A DNA stretch of 63,970 nt, the filler included, from Caldilineae bacterium (GTDB lineage: Bacteria; Chloroflexota; Anaerolineae; DTLA01): NCBI GenBank assembly GCA_037446815.1. It is 4 parts of 4 records of this genome, joined end to end, with 100 filler letters (N's around TTAATTAATTAA, not from the genome) between each part and the next. Parts side by side here need not be neighbours in the genome. Positions count along the whole stretch, not along the records: positions 17,141 to 33,732 come from JBBIHX010000056.1; 3 more parts are not named here. One strand, given 5' to 3'. Of this stretch, positions 17,041 through 49,084 are shown piece after piece; the first letter of the stretch is position 1; every line of letters begins with the position of its first letter. A program made the translations under genes and the position numbers. The notes below the pieces were generated by a model. It did no database searches. It was not told the origin of the DNA and saw nothing but the letters and a program-made list of their open reading frames with translations.

Positions 17041-17140
17041 NNNNNNNNNNNNNNNNNNNNNNNNNNNNNNNNNNNNNNNNNNNNTTAATTAATTAANNNN
17101 NNNNNNNNNNNNNNNNNNNNNNNNNNNNNNNNNNNNNNNN
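17041..17140. other. Artificial contig linker
   Basis: N44-TTAATTAATTAA-N44, stops in all six frames. Confidence 0.97.
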
Positions 17141-24245: not shown

Positions 24246-25037
24246 CTATTCCGCCTTCTTCCCGCGCGGCGGCAAGGGCAGGAAGGCGCTCGTCCGTTCC
24301 ACGTACTCCTTGTACTGCGGCTTCGTCTCCACCAGCGTCTTCTCCAACAGCGCCACGCCCGACACCCGAAGGAGCAGCAACGTCATGATGACCGGGCTGA
24401 ATACCGTCCACCAGCCGCCCGCCGCCACCGCGATGAGGTAGTAGCCCCACCACTGCGCCGAATCGCCGAAGTAGTTCGGATGGCGGGTATACCGCCACAC
24501 GCCCCTGTCCATCACCTTGCCCCTGTTGGCGGGGTCGGCTTTGAACCGGGCGAGTTGCCAATCGCCCACCGCCTCAAAGAAGAACCCGATGACCCACACG
24601 ATTAGCCCCAGCCCATCCAGCACCGTCAGGCGGGCGGGCGCGCCCGTGTATTGGGCGGCCAGCAGCGGCGCGGAGATGATCCACATGAGCGCGCCCTGGG
24701 TCAGGAACACGCGGAAGTAACTCTTCCACCAGAAACTCGCGCCCGCTTCCTCGCGCCACTTGCGATACCGAAAGTCCTCGCCCTTGCCCCAGTTGCGCCA
24801 CAGGATGTAGCCCGACAGCCGCAGGCCCCAGATGGTTACCAGCGTCATCAGCAGCGCCTTGCGCGCGATGTAGCCATCGGTGAGGGCGAAATACACCCAA
24901 CCAACGACGACGAACCCCAGCCCCCAGAAGATGTCCACGATGCTGGCGTCCCGCTTGACAAGGCTGGCGATCCAGATGGCGGTCATGTAGGCCACGACAA
25001 CCAGCGCCGCGATGCCCCAAATCGGCAATATGCCCAT
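24246..25037 (-). CDS. DUF1295 / steroid 5-alpha-reductase-like membrane protein
   Basis: SIVDIFWG, WGLRL, ED.RY, DWQL..FK, WRYTRHPNYFG. Confidence 0.9.
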   Translation of the reverse strand: MGILPIWGIAALVVVAYMTAIWIASLVKRDASIVDIFWGLGFVVVGWVYFALTDGYIARKALLMTLVTIWGLRLSGYILWRNWGKGEDFRYRKWREEAGASFWWKSYFRVFLTQGALMWIISAPLLAAQYTGAPARLTVLDGLGLIVWVIGFFFEAVGDWQLARFKADPANRGKVMDRGVWRYTRHPNYFGDSAQWWGYYLIAVAAGGWWTVFSPVIMTLLLLRVSGVALLEKTLVETKPQYKEYVERTSAFLPLPPRGKKAE

Positions 25038-25289
25038 GCGCGTTACCCCCTGTGGGTCTGGCTCCGAATACCAGTATGGCACGCAAAGCCGCCGCCGTCA
25101 AGCCTGGCCGGGGCGCTACGATGCTTTCGGCAGTCTCCCCCTCACCCCAGCCCTCTCCCGACGGGCGAGGGAGCCTAGCCTTGCCTCTGAGCGGTGAAAC
25201 CGCTCGGCCCGATGCTTTAGCGTCGGGCGGGCGCCCGCGCCATCCGTACCATCCACGCAGCCCACGCCAGCCATGGATACCGCTTCTCC

Positions 25290-25439
25290 GAGTCGGTTTC
25301 GTCTCGTGTTGGTGAAACGCATGGACACTCTCCTCGCGTGTCGTTGCGAGCGAAGCGAAGCAACCTCACGCCCCAGAGATTGCTTCGGGCGCTCCGCGCC
25401 CTCGCAATGACAAATACCAACAGACTTTGGAACCGAATC
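25290..25439 (-). mobile_element. MITE variant A (150 bp)
   Basis: Both TIRs; flanks GCTTCTCC/GTTTCTCC (7/8). Confidence 0.9.
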
Positions 25440-25549
25440 GTTTCTCCGCATGGATTCGCGCTTGTTCGCGGTATTGGACAACCCGCGCACCCGCCGCTAT
25501 CATAAGTCCGCGGGGAGCGCGCAATCGCCCCCGCGAGGAGGTGTGCGCG

Positions 25550-26191
25550 ATGAAATGCAGTCGGCGCGAGTTCCTGGAAGGGTTGGGCATTGTCCTGTCG
25601 GCCATTGTCCTGTCGCGGTGCAAGCCGCCCGGAAAGAAGGATGCCTGGGATCGCGTGCGCGACGCCTGGTATGGCCTGGATCAACTGGCCAAGGACGCCG
25701 TGGACTTGGAGCGAGGCCAGAAGACCCGCGACAAACTCATCGCCGAACACCTGGCCGCGCTGGACAGCCTTGTGCAGGCGGGGCTGGTCGGCGCGGGCGA
25801 GGCCGACGACATCCACGTGGCATTCCAGGCCGCCGCCCAGCACGTCTGGCGCGCCAACGCCCCCATCACATGCTACATCCCCGCCCCGTATCCGCAGTAT
25901 CGCATCATGAGCGCCAGCGACCTGGCCGAGCAGGCCGACATCCTGGCCGACATGGCCGCGCGCAGCGCCATTGACCCCGCCACCGTCGCCCAGGCCCAGG
26001 CGTCCATCCAGCGCGACATGGCCGTCCTGCTGCTGACCAGCGAGGACGAGAAAGCCCTGATTGAGGCCCTGCGGCAGACCGCCGGCGACAGCGCGTCGTT
26101 CCCGTCGCTGGAGGAACTGCAACTGGACATTCCGCCCGAGGCGATGACCGCCGCCACGCTGTTGGTGGACATCCTGCTGGGCAAGAAGTAG
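25550..26191 (+). CDS. Tat-exported putative lipoprotein, radical SAM partner
   Basis: RBS GAGGAGG; SRREFL twin-arginine motif; LSRC lipobox-like; 6 bp from the radical SAM gene. Confidence 0.75.
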   Translation: MKCSRREFLEGLGIVLSAIVLSRCKPPGKKDAWDRVRDAWYGLDQLAKDAVDLERGQKTRDKLIAEHLAALDSLVQAGLVGAGEADDIHVAFQAAAQHVWRANAPITCYIPAPYPQYRIMSASDLAEQADILADMAARSAIDPATVAQAQASIQRDMAVLLLTSEDEKALIEALRQTAGDSASFPSLEELQLDIPPEAMTAATLLVDILLGKK

Positions 26192-26197
26192 CGCGCC

Positions 26198-27229
26198 ATG
26201 GACAAGCCGCGGCTCCAGACGCTCATCCTGGAGATGACCCAGGACTGCGATCACGCCTGCCTATACTGCTACAACCCGTGGCGACGCGACGGCGCAGAGC
26301 CTGCGCCCGCACGCCCCCCGACCGACGCGCCCGCGCTGCTGGCCCATGTGCTGGCGCAGGTGCACTGCGGGCACGTAACGCTGACGGGCGGCGAGCCGCT
26401 CCTGTGCGGCGACCTGGCCGAGACGGTCGGCTTCCTGTCGGGCCGAGGCGTGCGCGTCAACCTCATCACCAACGGCCACCGTCTGACCGATGCCCTCGCC
26501 GCCGAACTCATACAAAGCGGCGTGAGCCTGTTCGCCGTGCCGCTGCTGAGCCACCGCCGCGAGGTGCACGATGCCCTGTGCGGCGCCCCAGGCGCTTTTG
26601 ACGCCGCGCTGGCCGCCCTTGCCCGCATCCGCGCCCACAGCGGCAGGGCCACGGTCGCCTTTGTCGCCACCCGACTCAACATCGCAGACCTGCGCGATAC
26701 CCTGCGCCTGGCCTTTGCCTTTGGCGTGCGCGGCATCCAGTTCAACCGCTTCAACCCAGGCGGGCGCGGCGCTGCTCACCTAGACCTCTTGCCGACGCTG
26801 GAGCAGGTGCGGGAGGCCCTCGCCGTCGCCGATGCGACCGCCGCCGAACTGGGCCTGACCGTGGCCATCTCCATCCCCATCCAGCCCTGCCTCGTAGACG
26901 TGGACGCATACCCGAACCTGAACTTCGGCTTCTGCGCCGCCGGGACCGACCGCGCCTACTACACGCTGGATCGGGCCGGCAACGTTCGCCCCTGCAATCA
27001 CAGCGGCACCGCGCTGGGCAACGTGTGGGAGCGGCCATTCGCGGACATCATCGCGGGGCAAGCGATGGCGGAGTTCGCGGCGGCGATCCCGCCGTTCTGC
27101 GAGGCGTGCCGCATGCGCGCCGCGTGTCAGGGCGGGTGCAAGGCCGCGGCGCAGGTGTGCTACGGCGACCTGCGGGCCGAGGAGCCATTCCTGCGCGCCA
27201 ATCTCGCCTCGGCGCGGCCGCTCATCTGA
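26198..27229 (+). CDS. Radical SAM protein with SPASM domain
   Basis: CDHACLYC, LTGGEP, ITNG; SPASM C...PC...GN...CxxCxxxxxCxGGCxA. Confidence 0.93.
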   Translation: MDKPRLQTLILEMTQDCDHACLYCYNPWRRDGAEPAPARPPTDAPALLAHVLAQVHCGHVTLTGGEPLLCGDLAETVGFLSGRGVRVNLITNGHRLTDALAAELIQSGVSLFAVPLLSHRREVHDALCGAPGAFDAALAALARIRAHSGRATVAFVATRLNIADLRDTLRLAFAFGVRGIQFNRFNPGGRGAAHLDLLPTLEQVREALAVADATAAELGLTVAISIPIQPCLVDVDAYPNLNFGFCAAGTDRAYYTLDRAGNVRPCNHSGTALGNVWERPFADIIAGQAMAEFAAAIPPFCEACRMRAACQGGCKAAAQVCYGDLRAEEPFLRANLASARPLI

Positions 27230-28042
27230 TCAGGCGACCCATCGGAGCAGCGCCAGCGTCCCAAGTCCCCACAGCGCCAGGTACTCCAACCGCACCCGCC
27301 AGGTGAGCCGTCCGCGCAGGTGATGTTGCAGGACGCCCGTGAGCGCGTAGGCGGTGAGCAGCAGGATGAGCGCCGCCCCGGCAGGCGTGATGCCCCACTG
27401 CGCCAGGCGACTCGCCGCGCCGCCGACCACGGCGCCGACGAGGAGCGCATGGAGCGCGACCGAATCGGGCGTGCGCTCGGGCTGCCGCAACAGGTCAACC
27501 GTGATGAGCGCCGCCGCAAAGCCACACAGCGCGCCGGCCTGGATGGGCGTAGGATCGCCCGTCAGGACCGCCATGAAGGCCGCCAGCGCCACGCCGTAGT
27601 CGGCAACGGTGAGCAGCCACCGCGCGCGAGGGTATGAGCCGCCGGCAGCGTCCACCGTGGCCCACTCCAGGTACAGGATACCCACCATGAGCGCGCCCAC
27701 CGCAACGGCCAGGCCCGCGACCGAAGCCCCCGACCGCAAACGCGCCGCGTGGCCCACGGCGGCAGCCGCGAAAAGGGCGGGCGTGGGCCAATAGTGGGCC
27801 GTGTGGCTTAACTCGCCGCGCGCGGCCTTGGGGTGCGCCGCGATGATGTCGTGCGTGCCGAGCGCGGCGGCGACGGCCAGCGCCAGGGCCAGCACAGGCG
27901 TCGCCGACAGGGTGCATGCCCACGACACCTTGCCCAGCGCCGCGTTCACGGGGCGGCTGTAGGCGCCCACCCACGGCGCGAGGGCCACGCCCAACGCCAG
28001 ATACGATGCCACCGTGAGGGTTTGCGTGCGCGGGAACCTCAC
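27230..28042 (-). CDS. Hypothetical multi-pass membrane protein (DUF5656-like)
   Basis: Hydrophobic; HP...HYWPTP and C-terminal LEY patterns. Confidence 0.6.
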   Translation of the reverse strand: MRFPRTQTLTVASYLALGVALAPWVGAYSRPVNAALGKVSWACTLSATPVLALALAVAAALGTHDIIAAHPKAARGELSHTAHYWPTPALFAAAAVGHAARLRSGASVAGLAVAVGALMVGILYLEWATVDAAGGSYPRARWLLTVADYGVALAAFMAVLTGDPTPIQAGALCGFAAALITVDLLRQPERTPDSVALHALLVGAVVGGAASRLAQWGITPAGAALILLLTAYALTGVLQHHLRGRLTWRVRLEYLALWGLGTLALLRWVA

Positions 28043-28118
28043 CTGCGCCTCTCCGACGGGATTTGCTGCGGAGGATTGTATGGGCAGCGGGGCGAGGTGT
28101 CAAGGGCGACTCGCTCCC

Positions 28119-28293
28119 GATTCGGTTCCAAGGTCTGTTGGCACCCACCGTCATTCTGAGCGGCGAAGCCGCGAAGAATCTCGCCCCTCACCCCAACCCT
28201 CTCCCAAAGGGCGAGGGCGTATCGCCTTCGGCTCAGCATGACAGAGCGGGTAGGCGGCGTGCGGGGCAGACCAACACAAGATGAAACCGACTC
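28119..28293 (+). mobile_element. MITE variant B (175 bp)
   Basis: Both TIRs; flanks TCGCTCCC/TCGCTCTC (7/8). Confidence 0.9.
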
Positions 28294-29965: not shown

Positions 29966-30475
29966 CTAGGGGCCGGGCATGGCGCTGGGCGGCAGGACGA
30001 ACGGCTCAAACCGCTCCCGCTTGGCCTTGCACACCGGGCAGACGCCAGGCGGATGCTCGCGCGCGCACAGATAGCCGCACACGCGACACCGCCAAAGCCG
30101 AATGCCGCCGGCGGGTTCGGGGGCGGGGGCGCGCTTGCCCCGTTGGGCGGGGCGGCGCTCCGGAACGGATTGCAGCGGGCGCTTGCCCTCCAGCACCTCG
30201 TCCGAGACGTACAGCGCGCAGTAGCACGCGCCCCAGTCGTACAGGTCGGGGTCCCGATAGTCGCACGGGCAGATGATGTCCAGGTCCTCATCCTTGTTGC
30301 CCGAGGCAAGGCGGCACGGGCATGCCCAGTAGCCGTAGCGGTCCTCGTTGGTCAGCAGGCCCTCTATCAGCCCGAGCGTCCATGCCTCGTCGGGGTTCAG
30401 ATGGTACCCTCCCGCCTCGGCGTCGGCCTTGAGTTGCTCGTAGGTCTTCCGCACCCGTTCGGGGTCCACCGTCAT
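29966..30475 (-). CDS. Ferredoxin-thioredoxin reductase catalytic subunit with C-terminal rubredoxin-like domain
   Basis: [18 protein letters not shown]...CPVC. Confidence 0.9.
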
Positions 30476-30741
30476 GCGCCGAAAACCCTCCTGTACTCGT
30501 CCTCGCGGTAACCTATGATGCACTCGCCGTCGGCAAACACCATGGGGAAGGCGGGGTTAGGCGTGTGCTTGCGCAGTTCCTCCATGACGCGCGCCTTCTC
30601 ATCGCCGGGCAGCAAGTCCACGTAGATGAGGTCAAACCCGCCCTCGCCGAATCGCTCCTCAAGCCATGTCCTTGCCTTCCGACACCAGCCACACGTGCTC
30701 AAACCGTACATCAGGGGACGCTGCCGGGTTGCTTTGTCCAT
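30472..30741 (-). CDS. Glutaredoxin-like protein
   Basis: LSTCGWC, FP, IIGY. Confidence 0.88.
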
Positions 30742-30830
30742 ATTCGCGTTCTCCTTGTGCTTAGCAAACTACCAACCGTAGTACACAATTTAGATGCGGC
30801 CGCAGGGGAGAGGGGTTCGCCCTCCGCCGA

Positions 30831-31310
30831 CTACTCGGCCCAGACCCACAGGCCCTTGTTGGACAGGGTGTAGAATTCATCCGACAGGATGCGGTAGTGC
30901 ACCGATTCCTCCTGGGCCAGGCGCTGGAACATGGCTTTGCCCAGCGGGTCGGTCGTGGATTCGGCGAGCCGCCGGTAGCGATCCTCGGCCTTGCGCTCGG
31001 CGTCCATGGCGAGGTTGAGCACATCTACCACTTCGCGCAGGTTGGTCTCCTGCTGCGGAGCGCGCCCGCCCTCCGGCTTGGGCGCGGCGAAGTCCTTGCC
31101 CTCGTAGGCGATATACCGGCCCGCGCCCAGCGACTGCACAAGGTCAAGCAGTTTCTGCTCGTGGTAGGCCTCAAAGTCGGCCAGTTGCAGAAGCAGCGCC
31201 TTGCCCTGGGGATTGGCGGTCTTCTCGGCGGCCGAGAGGTAGAATTGACGCGCGGCGCGTTCGGCCTCTATGGCCATCTGCACGGCTTCCAACAGTCCTT
31301 TGTCATCCAT
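30831..31310 (-). CDS. Ferritin-like/rubrerythrin-family protein
   Basis: Duplicated AI..E...FY / LA..E..H motifs. Confidence 0.88.
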   Translation of the reverse strand: MDDKGLLEAVQMAIEAERAARQFYLSAAEKTANPQGKALLLQLADFEAYHEQKLLDLVQSLGAGRYIAYEGKDFAAPKPEGGRAPQQETNLREVVDVLNLAMDAERKAEDRYRRLAESTTDPLGKAMFQRLAQEESVHYRILSDEFYTLSNKGLWVWAE

Positions 31311-31802
31311 GTGCGTCCTCCGAAGGTGGTTGTGCGTAGGATACCGTCGGCGCGGCGATTTGTCAAGGCGGGAGATGAGGGGGCGGCGCATGGCCGCGCG
31401 AGGCTGGAGCCGCCGTGATGAGGGTGTGGAGCAAATTGGCAATTTGCTCCACGGGGGCGTGGGGTGGGCGGATGGCCGCGCGGGGCTAAAGCCGCCGCGC
31501 TGAGTGGGTAGACCCAGCCCGCAGGGCTTTGTGCACGCAGCCCAACGTTAAAGCGTCGGGCGGGACGTTGGAGGGGACGCAGCCCAGTCCTGTCACCCTG
31601 AGCGCAGCGAAGGGTCTCGCTTTGCGAGATTCTTCGCGGCTCCGCCGCTCAGAAAGACAGATTGCGGCGGGCGTGGGGGCATGGCCGCGCGGGGCAACCG
31701 ATTCGCTCACCGCGGAGACAGAGAGGACGCGGAGAATGGTACAAACTCTGTGCCCTCTGTGCCTCTCTCTACGGTGTGTTCTTGCGCACACGAAAAACAC
31801 CA

Positions 31803-33732: not shown

Positions 33733-33832
33733 NNNNNNNNNNNNNNNNNNNNNNNNNNNNNNNNNNNNNNNNNNNNTTAATTAATTAANNNNNNNNNNNN
33801 NNNNNNNNNNNNNNNNNNNNNNNNNNNNNNNN
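33733..33832. other. Artificial contig linker
   Basis: N-TTAATTAATTAA-N. Confidence 0.97.
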
Positions 33833-48984: not shown

Positions 48985-49084
48985 NNNNNNNNNNNNNNNN
49001 NNNNNNNNNNNNNNNNNNNNNNNNNNNNTTAATTAATTAANNNNNNNNNNNNNNNNNNNNNNNNNNNNNNNNNNNNNNNNNNNN
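48985..49084. other. Artificial contig linker
   Basis: N-TTAATTAATTAA-N. Confidence 0.97.

Follow-up and report, generated by a model that had tools for sequence, protein, structure and literature searches.

A radical SAM/SPASM enzyme and an exported protein with a conserved Cys-Tyr motif: a candidate maturase-substrate pair of Anaerolineae

Introduction

Maturases of the radical S-adenosylmethionine (SAM)/SPASM type are mostly known from short peptides. PqqE acts on a ribosomal peptide substrate at a tyrosine, and MftC is a tyrosine-directed enzyme as well. Whole-protein cases are few and are represented by anSME, QhpD and the CrpC system considered below. anSME is a stand-alone SPASM enzyme without an RRE (RiPP precursor peptide recognition element); it works in the cytoplasm, where it modifies a cysteine of an entire protein ahead of export; QhpD and QhpC are a maturase and its cognate protein substrate. 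The present work concerns two adjacent genes, A and B, in a window of 63,970 nucleotides (the whole stretch of DNA analysed) from an uncultured Anaerolineae bacterium. Gene A encodes a predicted exported protein with a conserved Cys-Tyr motif, and gene B encodes a radical SAM/SPASM enzyme which, judging from comparative evidence, probably modifies protein A at or beside this pair of residues.

According to PMC13692751, the SPASM radical SAM enzyme CrpC of Methanococcus voltae equips its protein substrate CrpA with thioether (ranthionine) crosslinks and belongs to the whole-protein cases. In the enteropeptins, as described in PMC12395415, a radical SAM-made thioether joins a cysteine to the alpha-carbon of the adjacent residue in the peptide MKGOCPPS, where Pro-Pro follows the cysteine. 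Cys-Tyr crosslinks themselves are known as autocatalytic cofactors of galactose oxidase (GAO), CDO, ADO, NirA and BF4112. The table in the review lists all of them as autocatalytic and none as made by a radical SAM enzyme; the CDO and GAO mechanisms given there use metal-bound superoxide, and in ADO the residues are Cys220 and Tyr222, two positions apart (PMC11951088). A literature search that did not extend to subscription journals or supplements turned up no account of the A-B pair, and none of a radical SAM enzyme that forms a Cys-Tyr link.

The gene pair and its distribution

The window consists of four contigs joined by N spacers, and the gene pair lies on the second contig (17141-33732). 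The features of the pair are as follows.

Gene A, 25550-26191, + strand: 213 residues, ATG at 25550, stop codon at 26189-26191; exported helical protein with a Cys-Tyr motif, candidate substrate.
Signal region of A, residues 1-24, 25550-25621, + strand: twin-arginine S-R-R-E-F-L, hydrophobic stretch, L-S-R-C24.
Loop NAPITCYIPAPYP of A, N103-APITCYIPAPY-P115, 25856-25894, + strand: proposed modification site, T107-C108-Y109.
Codons of C108, 25871-25873, and Y109, 25874-25876, + strand.
Gene B, 26198-27229, + strand: 343 residues; radical SAM/SPASM enzyme, candidate maturase.
Radical SAM cluster motif C17-x3-C21-x2-C24 of B, 26246-26269, + strand: invariant in 24/24 orthologues and paralogues.
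SPASM region of B with eight cysteines (231, 246, 266, 301, 304, 310, 314, 321), 26888-27160, + strand: all invariant in 24/24 orthologues and paralogues.

Only 6 bp (26192-26197) separate the two genes, and the neighbours on both sides are on the opposite strand, which agrees with the description of an isolated two-gene unit in the sequence-only reading of this locus. In relatives the genes overlap or abut. Clustering of all open reading frames (ORFs) from the first 13 loci and the window revealed no third conserved gene. The A-B pair is therefore a self-contained two-gene cassette.

A joint system would require the genes to occur together, and they do. A pattern scan of the genome collection located 13 loci with a relative of gene A, and gene B was directly downstream in 12 of them. 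In the genome of the exception (L008), an orthologue of B (609 bits) and its own copy of A are found on another contig, so that L008 can be regarded as an extra paralogue. The metagenomes contributed 28 loci, five of which (L020, L035, L036, L038 and L044) lie on contigs that end before a downstream gene becomes visible. Gene B was downstream in 22 of the 23 informative loci: directly in 21, and in L025 at a distance of 1.5 kb, with a truncated second copy of A and an ORF on the opposite strand lying in between. Since the patterns used for the metagenome loci include T-C-Y, these counts test pairing and not the motif, and the sample is biased towards A members keeping ANAP[IM]TCY. Of 401 genomes sampled from the whole phylum, three were matched by the A profile (E<=1e-5), and the same three were matched by B (E<=1e-30). 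In the order of the window, which comprises one genus, B was present in all five genomes and A adjoined it in each. The pairing is far beyond chance.

The cassette is rare in sequenced genomes and diverse in metagenomes. All named records belong to Chloroflexota, except one metagenome-assembled genome labelled 'uncultured Rickettsiales', in which a contig (CAZXHG010000064.1; locus L013) carries the complete pair. As the other named records are all Chloroflexota, this label may reflect a binning error rather than gene transfer.

In metagenome locus L025 the second A copy (847-1149) has an internal deletion, and the ORF between gene A and the enzyme gene (1073-2308, - strand) encodes 411 residues with Cys-rich, zinc-finger-like motifs. 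We read it as a putative transposase.

Enzyme B

The domain assignment of the sequence-only reading, a full SPASM radical SAM enzyme, was borne out by both Pfam models: Radical_SAM PF04055 matched with 70.8 bits against a cut-off of 29.5 (E 2.1e-19), and SPASM PF13186 with 26.6 bits against 21.5 (E 7.3e-06) at residues 254-304. The seven-cysteine motif of SPASM domains is C-x9-15-G-x4-C, a gap, C-x2-C-x5-C-x3-C, a second gap and C. In B it takes the form C246-x14-G-x4-C266, C301-x2-C304-x5-C310-x3-C314 and C321, to which C231 is added. These eight cysteines would suffice to ligate two auxiliary clusters fully. The enzyme has no signal peptide or N-terminal extension, and its radical SAM core begins at residue 12.

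B scored below the curated cut-off of all 68 NCBIfam models matched. The best match was AhbD (96.4 bits against a cut-off of 500), with the best stretch in the radical SAM core, residues 11-192. It was followed by GeoRSP (91.9 against 400), PqqE (TIGR02109; 90.4 against 381), NirJ2 (86.8 against 500), AhbC (83.8 against 650), MftC (TIGR03962; 80.7 against 265, aligned over the full length of B) and NirJ (72.3 against 515). With scores so far below the cut-offs and no conserved neighbour from a cofactor pathway, B is not a member of the Ahb, NirJ or PqqE enzymes, a grouping that would have told against a protein-modifying role.

The nearest solved structure is that of PqqE (6c8v), which aligns with B end to end (E 2.2e-10 for the single sequence). 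Against a profile of 24 B sequences the match rises to E 1.5e-21, with residues 8-334 set against 29-350. The same profile matches anSME (4k37) in the SPASM part only, at residues 251-319 (E 5.8e-09), and SkfB and CteB match only the N-terminal core. No anSME model was present among the 25 best of the 68 NCBIfam matches. For a complex of B with SAM, three 4Fe-4S clusters and the stretch 88-130 of protein A, prediction returned a score of 0.00, which is no answer and is counted neither way.

Protein A

Protein A begins with M-K-C-S-R-R-E-F-L-E-G-L-G-I-V-L-S-A-I-V-L-S-R-C, in which S4-R5-R6-E7-F8-L9 is a twin-arginine motif and the hydrophobic stretch ends in L21-S22-R23-C24. Conservation was assessed in 130 representatives sharing at most 50% identity, namely P0001 and those 129 of the 149 listed representatives that have 180-300 residues (the 20 shorter or longer ones were excluded). 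R5 is kept in 115 of them, R6 in 116, F8 in 112 and C24 in 97; R5, R6 and F8 are each at least 90% conserved in 72 diverse A members. The genome encodes TatC (205.7 bits) as well as two Lgt and two LspA matches. The Tat-signal models of Pfam and NCBIfam found nothing in protein A at E<=1, so that the Tat assignment depends on the motif and its conservation. By its motif and the conservation of that motif, together with the presence of TatC, protein A is a predicted substrate of twin-arginine translocation (Tat), as proposed from the sequence earlier.

For the lipoprotein part of that proposal the signs are mixed. Cys24 is conserved, but the usual lipobox is [LVI][ASTVI][GAS]C, and L-S-R-C is non-canonical. 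Because the arginine before Cys24 does not fit the lipobox, lipoprotein status is not established for this copy. Among the 130 representatives the preceding residue is arginine in 59 and glycine in 40; the glycine form matches the lipobox, whereas the arginine form, as in this copy, does not. A genome scan of the residue before lipobox-like cysteines, which was a crude regular expression on raw ORFs and is suggestive only, was dominated by alanine (69) and glycine (47). None of the other Arg-before-Cys cases, in our reading, resembles a signal peptide. Lipidation of Cys24 is thus possible, with an uncleaved signal anchor as the alternative.

The AlphaFold2 model of protein A, built on an alignment of 36 sequences, is confident (mean predicted local distance difference test score 82.1, predicted template modelling score 0.77) and all helix. 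Helices 82-103 and 117-136 are connected by its one long segment without secondary structure, residues 104-116, which is the NAPITCYIPAPYP loop, so the helical body with a single central loop foreseen from the sequence is found in the model too. No Pfam or NCBIfam family matched the protein at E<=1 save for a spurious Cas1 match (E 0.28). A Foldseek search of the model against PDB gave nothing at E<=0.001 (best 0.35), and in a wide VIA-align search the highest Z was 8.7, the matches being generic helical ones to residues 29-110 only. Neither search assigns a fold; the C-terminal half is barely covered by them. A diverse A profile found no PDB sequence below E 0.1. In the ESM Atlas, the homologue P0015 led to weak 'Tat signal' clusters only, with scores of at most 0.78. 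When 1.84 billion representatives were searched with a profile, 479 clusters (clustered at 50% identity) matched at E<=0.001 and 114 at E<=1e-30.

One relative, P0178, is a giant of 1478 residues with at least nine family matches. It consists of many helical modules, most of them with a Cys-Tyr pair, which alternate with linker Cys-Tyr motifs, and shows a weak, sub-threshold S-layer-homology match (E 0.0066).

The Cys-Tyr motif

In 36 close homologues of A the residues H98-V-W-R, A104-P, T107, C108 and Y109 are invariant. Among the 130 representatives, C108 is kept in 126 and Y109 in 122, and T107 in 88 with serine in a further 11. Other well-kept positions are H67 (128), W40 (127), R37 (121), Q128 (120), D156 (118) and H98 (110). 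The conservation of the Cys-Tyr pair, on which the sequence-only reading had placed the target, is far beyond chance.

The motif is not confined to the central loop. In 150 family proteins, 198 of 510 cysteines are directly followed by tyrosine, the background of which is 2.3%. Between the signal peptide and the first helix, 37 of the 130 representatives have one to three extra Cys-Tyr copies in a Pro/Thr-rich linker. The consensus of these copies, T-P-T-P-x-V-T-C-Y-x-P-x-P-P-T, shares P-hydrophobic-T-C-Y-x-P with the central loop. The gene itself is also multiplied: two or three tandem A genes precede a single B gene in L006, L007, L015/L018, L037, L042 and L043, and the central T-C-Y is kept in every tandem copy.

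A paralogous arrangement was found in genome G015, where a second B-like gene (45% identity to B) is preceded by two short genes encoding 122 and 145 residues. Their products have a non-Tat signal peptide, three to four [T/M/V]-C-Y repeats and a Pro/Thr-rich composition; in place of the helical body there is one short C-terminal helix with conserved L-L-A-E-G-R-F-P. The coordinates of this locus (L050; G015:C71) are:

Short genes, 467-904 and 1021-1389: before the B paralogue.
B paralogue, 1393-2511: longest listed ORF.

Three further short relatives (P0190-P0192) have three to five Cys-Tyr repeats. Owing to the linker copies, the tandem A genes and the short Cys-Tyr-repeat proteins, the motif looks like a recognised unit. 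Its recurrence in a folded loop, in disordered linkers and in short partner proteins resembles that of a modification site.

Proposed mechanism and alternatives

Conservation, co-occurrence and repetition of the motif together support the earlier view that the Cys-Tyr loop is the target of the enzyme on an exported protein. B, which lacks a signal peptide, would be a cytoplasmic maturase and protein A its substrate, acted upon before export. The enzyme would recognise the extended proline-flanked motif P-(I/V/M)-T-C-Y-x-P, present here as a single copy in loop 103-115, and cleave SAM to form the 5'-deoxyadenosyl radical, which would abstract hydrogen from the Cys-Tyr pair or from a position beside it. 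The preferred product is an intramolecular thioether between the sulfur of Cys108 and a carbon of a neighbouring residue, most likely Tyr109. A link to the alpha-carbon of Tyr109 would give a six-membered thiomorpholine-type ring, as in the enteropeptins; the beta-carbon or a ring carbon might also serve. The modified and folded protein would then leave by the Tat pathway, the use of which could be explained by folding or maturation of A before transport, and would stay at the cell surface through lipidated Cys24 or an uncleaved signal anchor.

Preference for a thioether to Tyr109 comes from the joint conservation of Cys and Tyr while the residue before the cysteine varies. SPASM enzymes are also known to make Cys thioethers in peptides and, in the recent case of CrpC and CrpA, in a protein, and the enteropeptins show a radical SAM-made thioether between adjacent residues beside Pro-Pro. 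The full proposal with its Cys-centred thioether is plausible and is put forward tentatively, with somewhat less than even confidence. Chemistry centred on the threonine is unlikely, since the residue before the motif cysteine may be T, S, M, V or L in relatives. Since Tyr-Gly is absent, a splicease-type reaction was discarded.

Several observations weigh against the proposal. All evidence for modification of A by B is comparative, and it is from such evidence that we infer that B acts on A, where it does so, in which order the steps occur and what reaction is involved. The reaction is not fixed by homology, as B is about equidistant from AhbD, PqqE, NirJ2, MftC, GeoRSP and StsB (75-96 bits), and its nearest relatives PqqE and MftC carry out Tyr-centred carbon chemistry. 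Several thioether-forming enzymes leave one site of an auxiliary cluster open for the substrate cysteine. As all eight SPASM-region cysteines are invariant in B, both of its clusters are perhaps fully ligated, as in anSME, and this would mildly disfavour a sactisynthase-like mechanism. Pfam gave no RRE or PqqD match in B, and no conserved neighbour encodes one. In the remaining informative metagenome locus (L046) the A-like fragment is degraded, and B is absent from its surroundings as far as 1.1 kb away. Finally, the conserved H67, H98, D156, Q128 and W40 could form a metal or cofactor site, in which case the Cys-Tyr pair would be conserved for the protein's own function and not as an enzyme target.

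The same enzyme, substrate and site might be served by other chemistry, such as formation of C-alpha-formylglycine at Cys108 in the manner of anSME, a Tyr-centred C-C or C-O link in that of PqqE or MftC, epimerisation or methylation. We consider this somewhat unlikely. It would suit the cluster ligation just mentioned, in which the eight invariant cysteines match anSME, and the anSME match of the B profile in the SPASM region (4k37). B, like anSME, is also without an RRE and would have as its target an entire exported protein, modified ahead of transport, and the Tyr-directed activity of its best full-length solved relative, PqqE, as well as of MftC, points the same way. Nevertheless, the sulfatase motif C/S-x-P/A-x-R is absent, Y-I-P-A following C108, protein A is not a sulfatase by Pfam or fold, and anSME models are missing from the 25 best NCBIfam matches of B. 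The joint near-invariance of Cys and Tyr suits a two-residue reaction better than a change of a single residue.

A role of B in producing or tailoring a small cofactor, like that of AhbD, NirJ and PqqE, with A as a client that binds this cofactor through His67, His98, Cys108 and Tyr109, is improbable. The rank of AhbD as best NCBIfam match, with NirJ2, AhbC and PqqE after it, would fit such a role, but all of these matches are far below their cut-offs and that to AhbD covers the radical SAM core only. Two histidines, the Cys-Tyr pair, an aspartate and a glutamine are conserved in A, and Tat export is typical of cofactor-loaded proteins; yet Cys-Tyr pairs in disordered linkers and in short proteins devoid of the body are hard to read as pockets, no other biosynthesis gene occurs among conserved neighbours, and a single enzyme gene follows up to three copies of A.

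A special form of the thioether reading is that B installs a Cys-Tyr cofactor of the galactose oxidase/ADO type without oxygen in an exported protein, with the conserved His67, His98 and Tyr residues binding a metal. We regard this as quite doubtful. If true, this would be the first Cys-Tyr cofactor to be made anaerobically by an enzyme, and the same enzyme would turn the Cys-Tyr repeats of linkers and short proteins into redox-active or crosslinking sites.

That the genes merely share an operon, with B never touching A and A being a regulator, an anchor or a surface protein required alongside whatever B really produces, is highly unlikely: its sole support is the lack of direct evidence for contact between A and B, and it is opposed by the 6-bp spacing with overlapping or abutting genes in relatives, by the lack of another conserved candidate substrate nearby, and by the motif repeats and the paralogous short-protein system.

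Surroundings of the gene pair

The remaining features of the window that are relevant to the locus are:

Contig joints, 17041-17140, 33733-33832 and 48985-49084: two N runs each, 12 bases apart; gene order across them is meaningless.
DUF1295 gene, 24246-25082, strand opposite to A and B: unrelated neighbour.
DUF5656 gene, 27230-28042, strand opposite to A and B: unrelated neighbour.
Promoter-like TGGACA-17-TATCAT, 25475-25503, + strand, upstream of gene A: 10/12 matches, consensus match only.
Shine-Dalgarno-like GGAGG, 25537-25541, + strand: 8 nt before the ATG of gene A, direct sequence reading.
Ferredoxin-thioredoxin-reductase beta-like domain fused to a rubredoxin-like domain, 29966-30523, - strand.
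Glutaredoxin-like protein, 30472-30741, - strand: overlaps the preceding gene.
Rubrerythrin-like protein, 30831-31442, - strand.

Two promoter-like sites were found in the region, with 0.1 expected from shuffled sequences. A longer frame of gene A from TTG 25427 was disfavoured. The ATG at 25550 is taken as the start because homologues all begin there, GGAGG precedes it and the promoter-like site lies inside the longer frame.

Dispersed repeats flank the three-gene block in intergenic DNA. One element of about 150 nt occupies 25290-25439 and, inverted, 28118-28293; another of about 45-60 nt occupies 25138-25182 and 28184-28228. When both intergenic regions were compared with the 3.19-Mb genome by BLAST, 1382 hits were returned, spread over 229 contigs, with about 200-300 for each element. 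The genome has a very high load of such elements, which are MITE-like (miniature inverted-repeat transposable element) or REP-like (repetitive extragenic palindromic). As each element is matched so many times genome-wide, the inverted and direct repeats were rejected as borders of the cassette and are copies of dispersed elements.

The three redox genes form a cluster at 29966-31442 on the - strand. It is compatible with an oxygen-sensitive lifestyle.

Significance and comparison with known systems

The pair is distinctive in its compactness, two genes with no helper gene, and in its sharp, portable target motif P-x-T-C-Y-x-P, which is found in the loop of a folded domain, within disordered linkers and, in short proteins, as almost the only content. 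These features open the chemistry to a direct test. Should the product be a Cys-Tyr link, this would represent a new class of crosslink and possibly an oxygen-independent route to a Cys-Tyr cofactor. The A proteins are, moreover, an uncharacterised family of Anaerolineae surface proteins: none of the Pfam or NCBIfam models describes the 479 clusters.

With PqqE, enzyme B shares the radical SAM and SPASM layout and a full-length alignment. The PqqE/PqqA system differs in that no conserved PqqA, PqqD or PqqB/C genes are found near B, and protein A is an exported protein of 213 residues with Cys-Tyr, unlike the Glu-x3-Tyr peptide PqqA. The likeness to anSME lies in the matching SPASM part (4k37) and in the eight cysteines for two fully ligated clusters. 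Here the match to B is limited to the SPASM part, C-x-P-x-R is absent from A, and A is a helical, non-sulfatase protein.

The sequence-only reading had compared the locus with TIGR04133/TIGR04134, in which a SPASM enzyme is likewise encoded beside a signal-peptide or lipobox protein. The architecture is indeed the same, but B is not a member of TIGR04133 (rSAM_w_lipo; 59.6 bits against a cut-off of 425) and TIGR04134 did not match gene A at E<=1, so the comparison holds only as an analogy.

The Cys-Tyr cofactor proteins resemble protein A in using a Cys-Tyr pair as a functional unit, and A has two conserved histidines, as a metal site would. Structure and profile searches found no fold or sequence similarity between A and these proteins. 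The enteropeptins (PMC12395415) offer, by analogy only, a chemical precedent for a crosslink in a Pro-flanked two-residue motif. They differ as short secreted Enterococcus peptides in which the acceptor residue precedes the cysteine.

In CrpC/CrpA (PMC13692751) a SPASM enzyme is encoded beside a protein-sized substrate, as in the A-B pair. An RRE is predicted for CrpC, and its substrate is rich in cysteine, whereas no RRE was found in B and A has a single target cysteine in a fixed Cys-Tyr pair. The A-B pair is outside every curated family tested. By analogy with anSME and its sulfatase, QhpD and QhpC, and CrpC and CrpA, it may work as a maturase with its cognate protein substrate.

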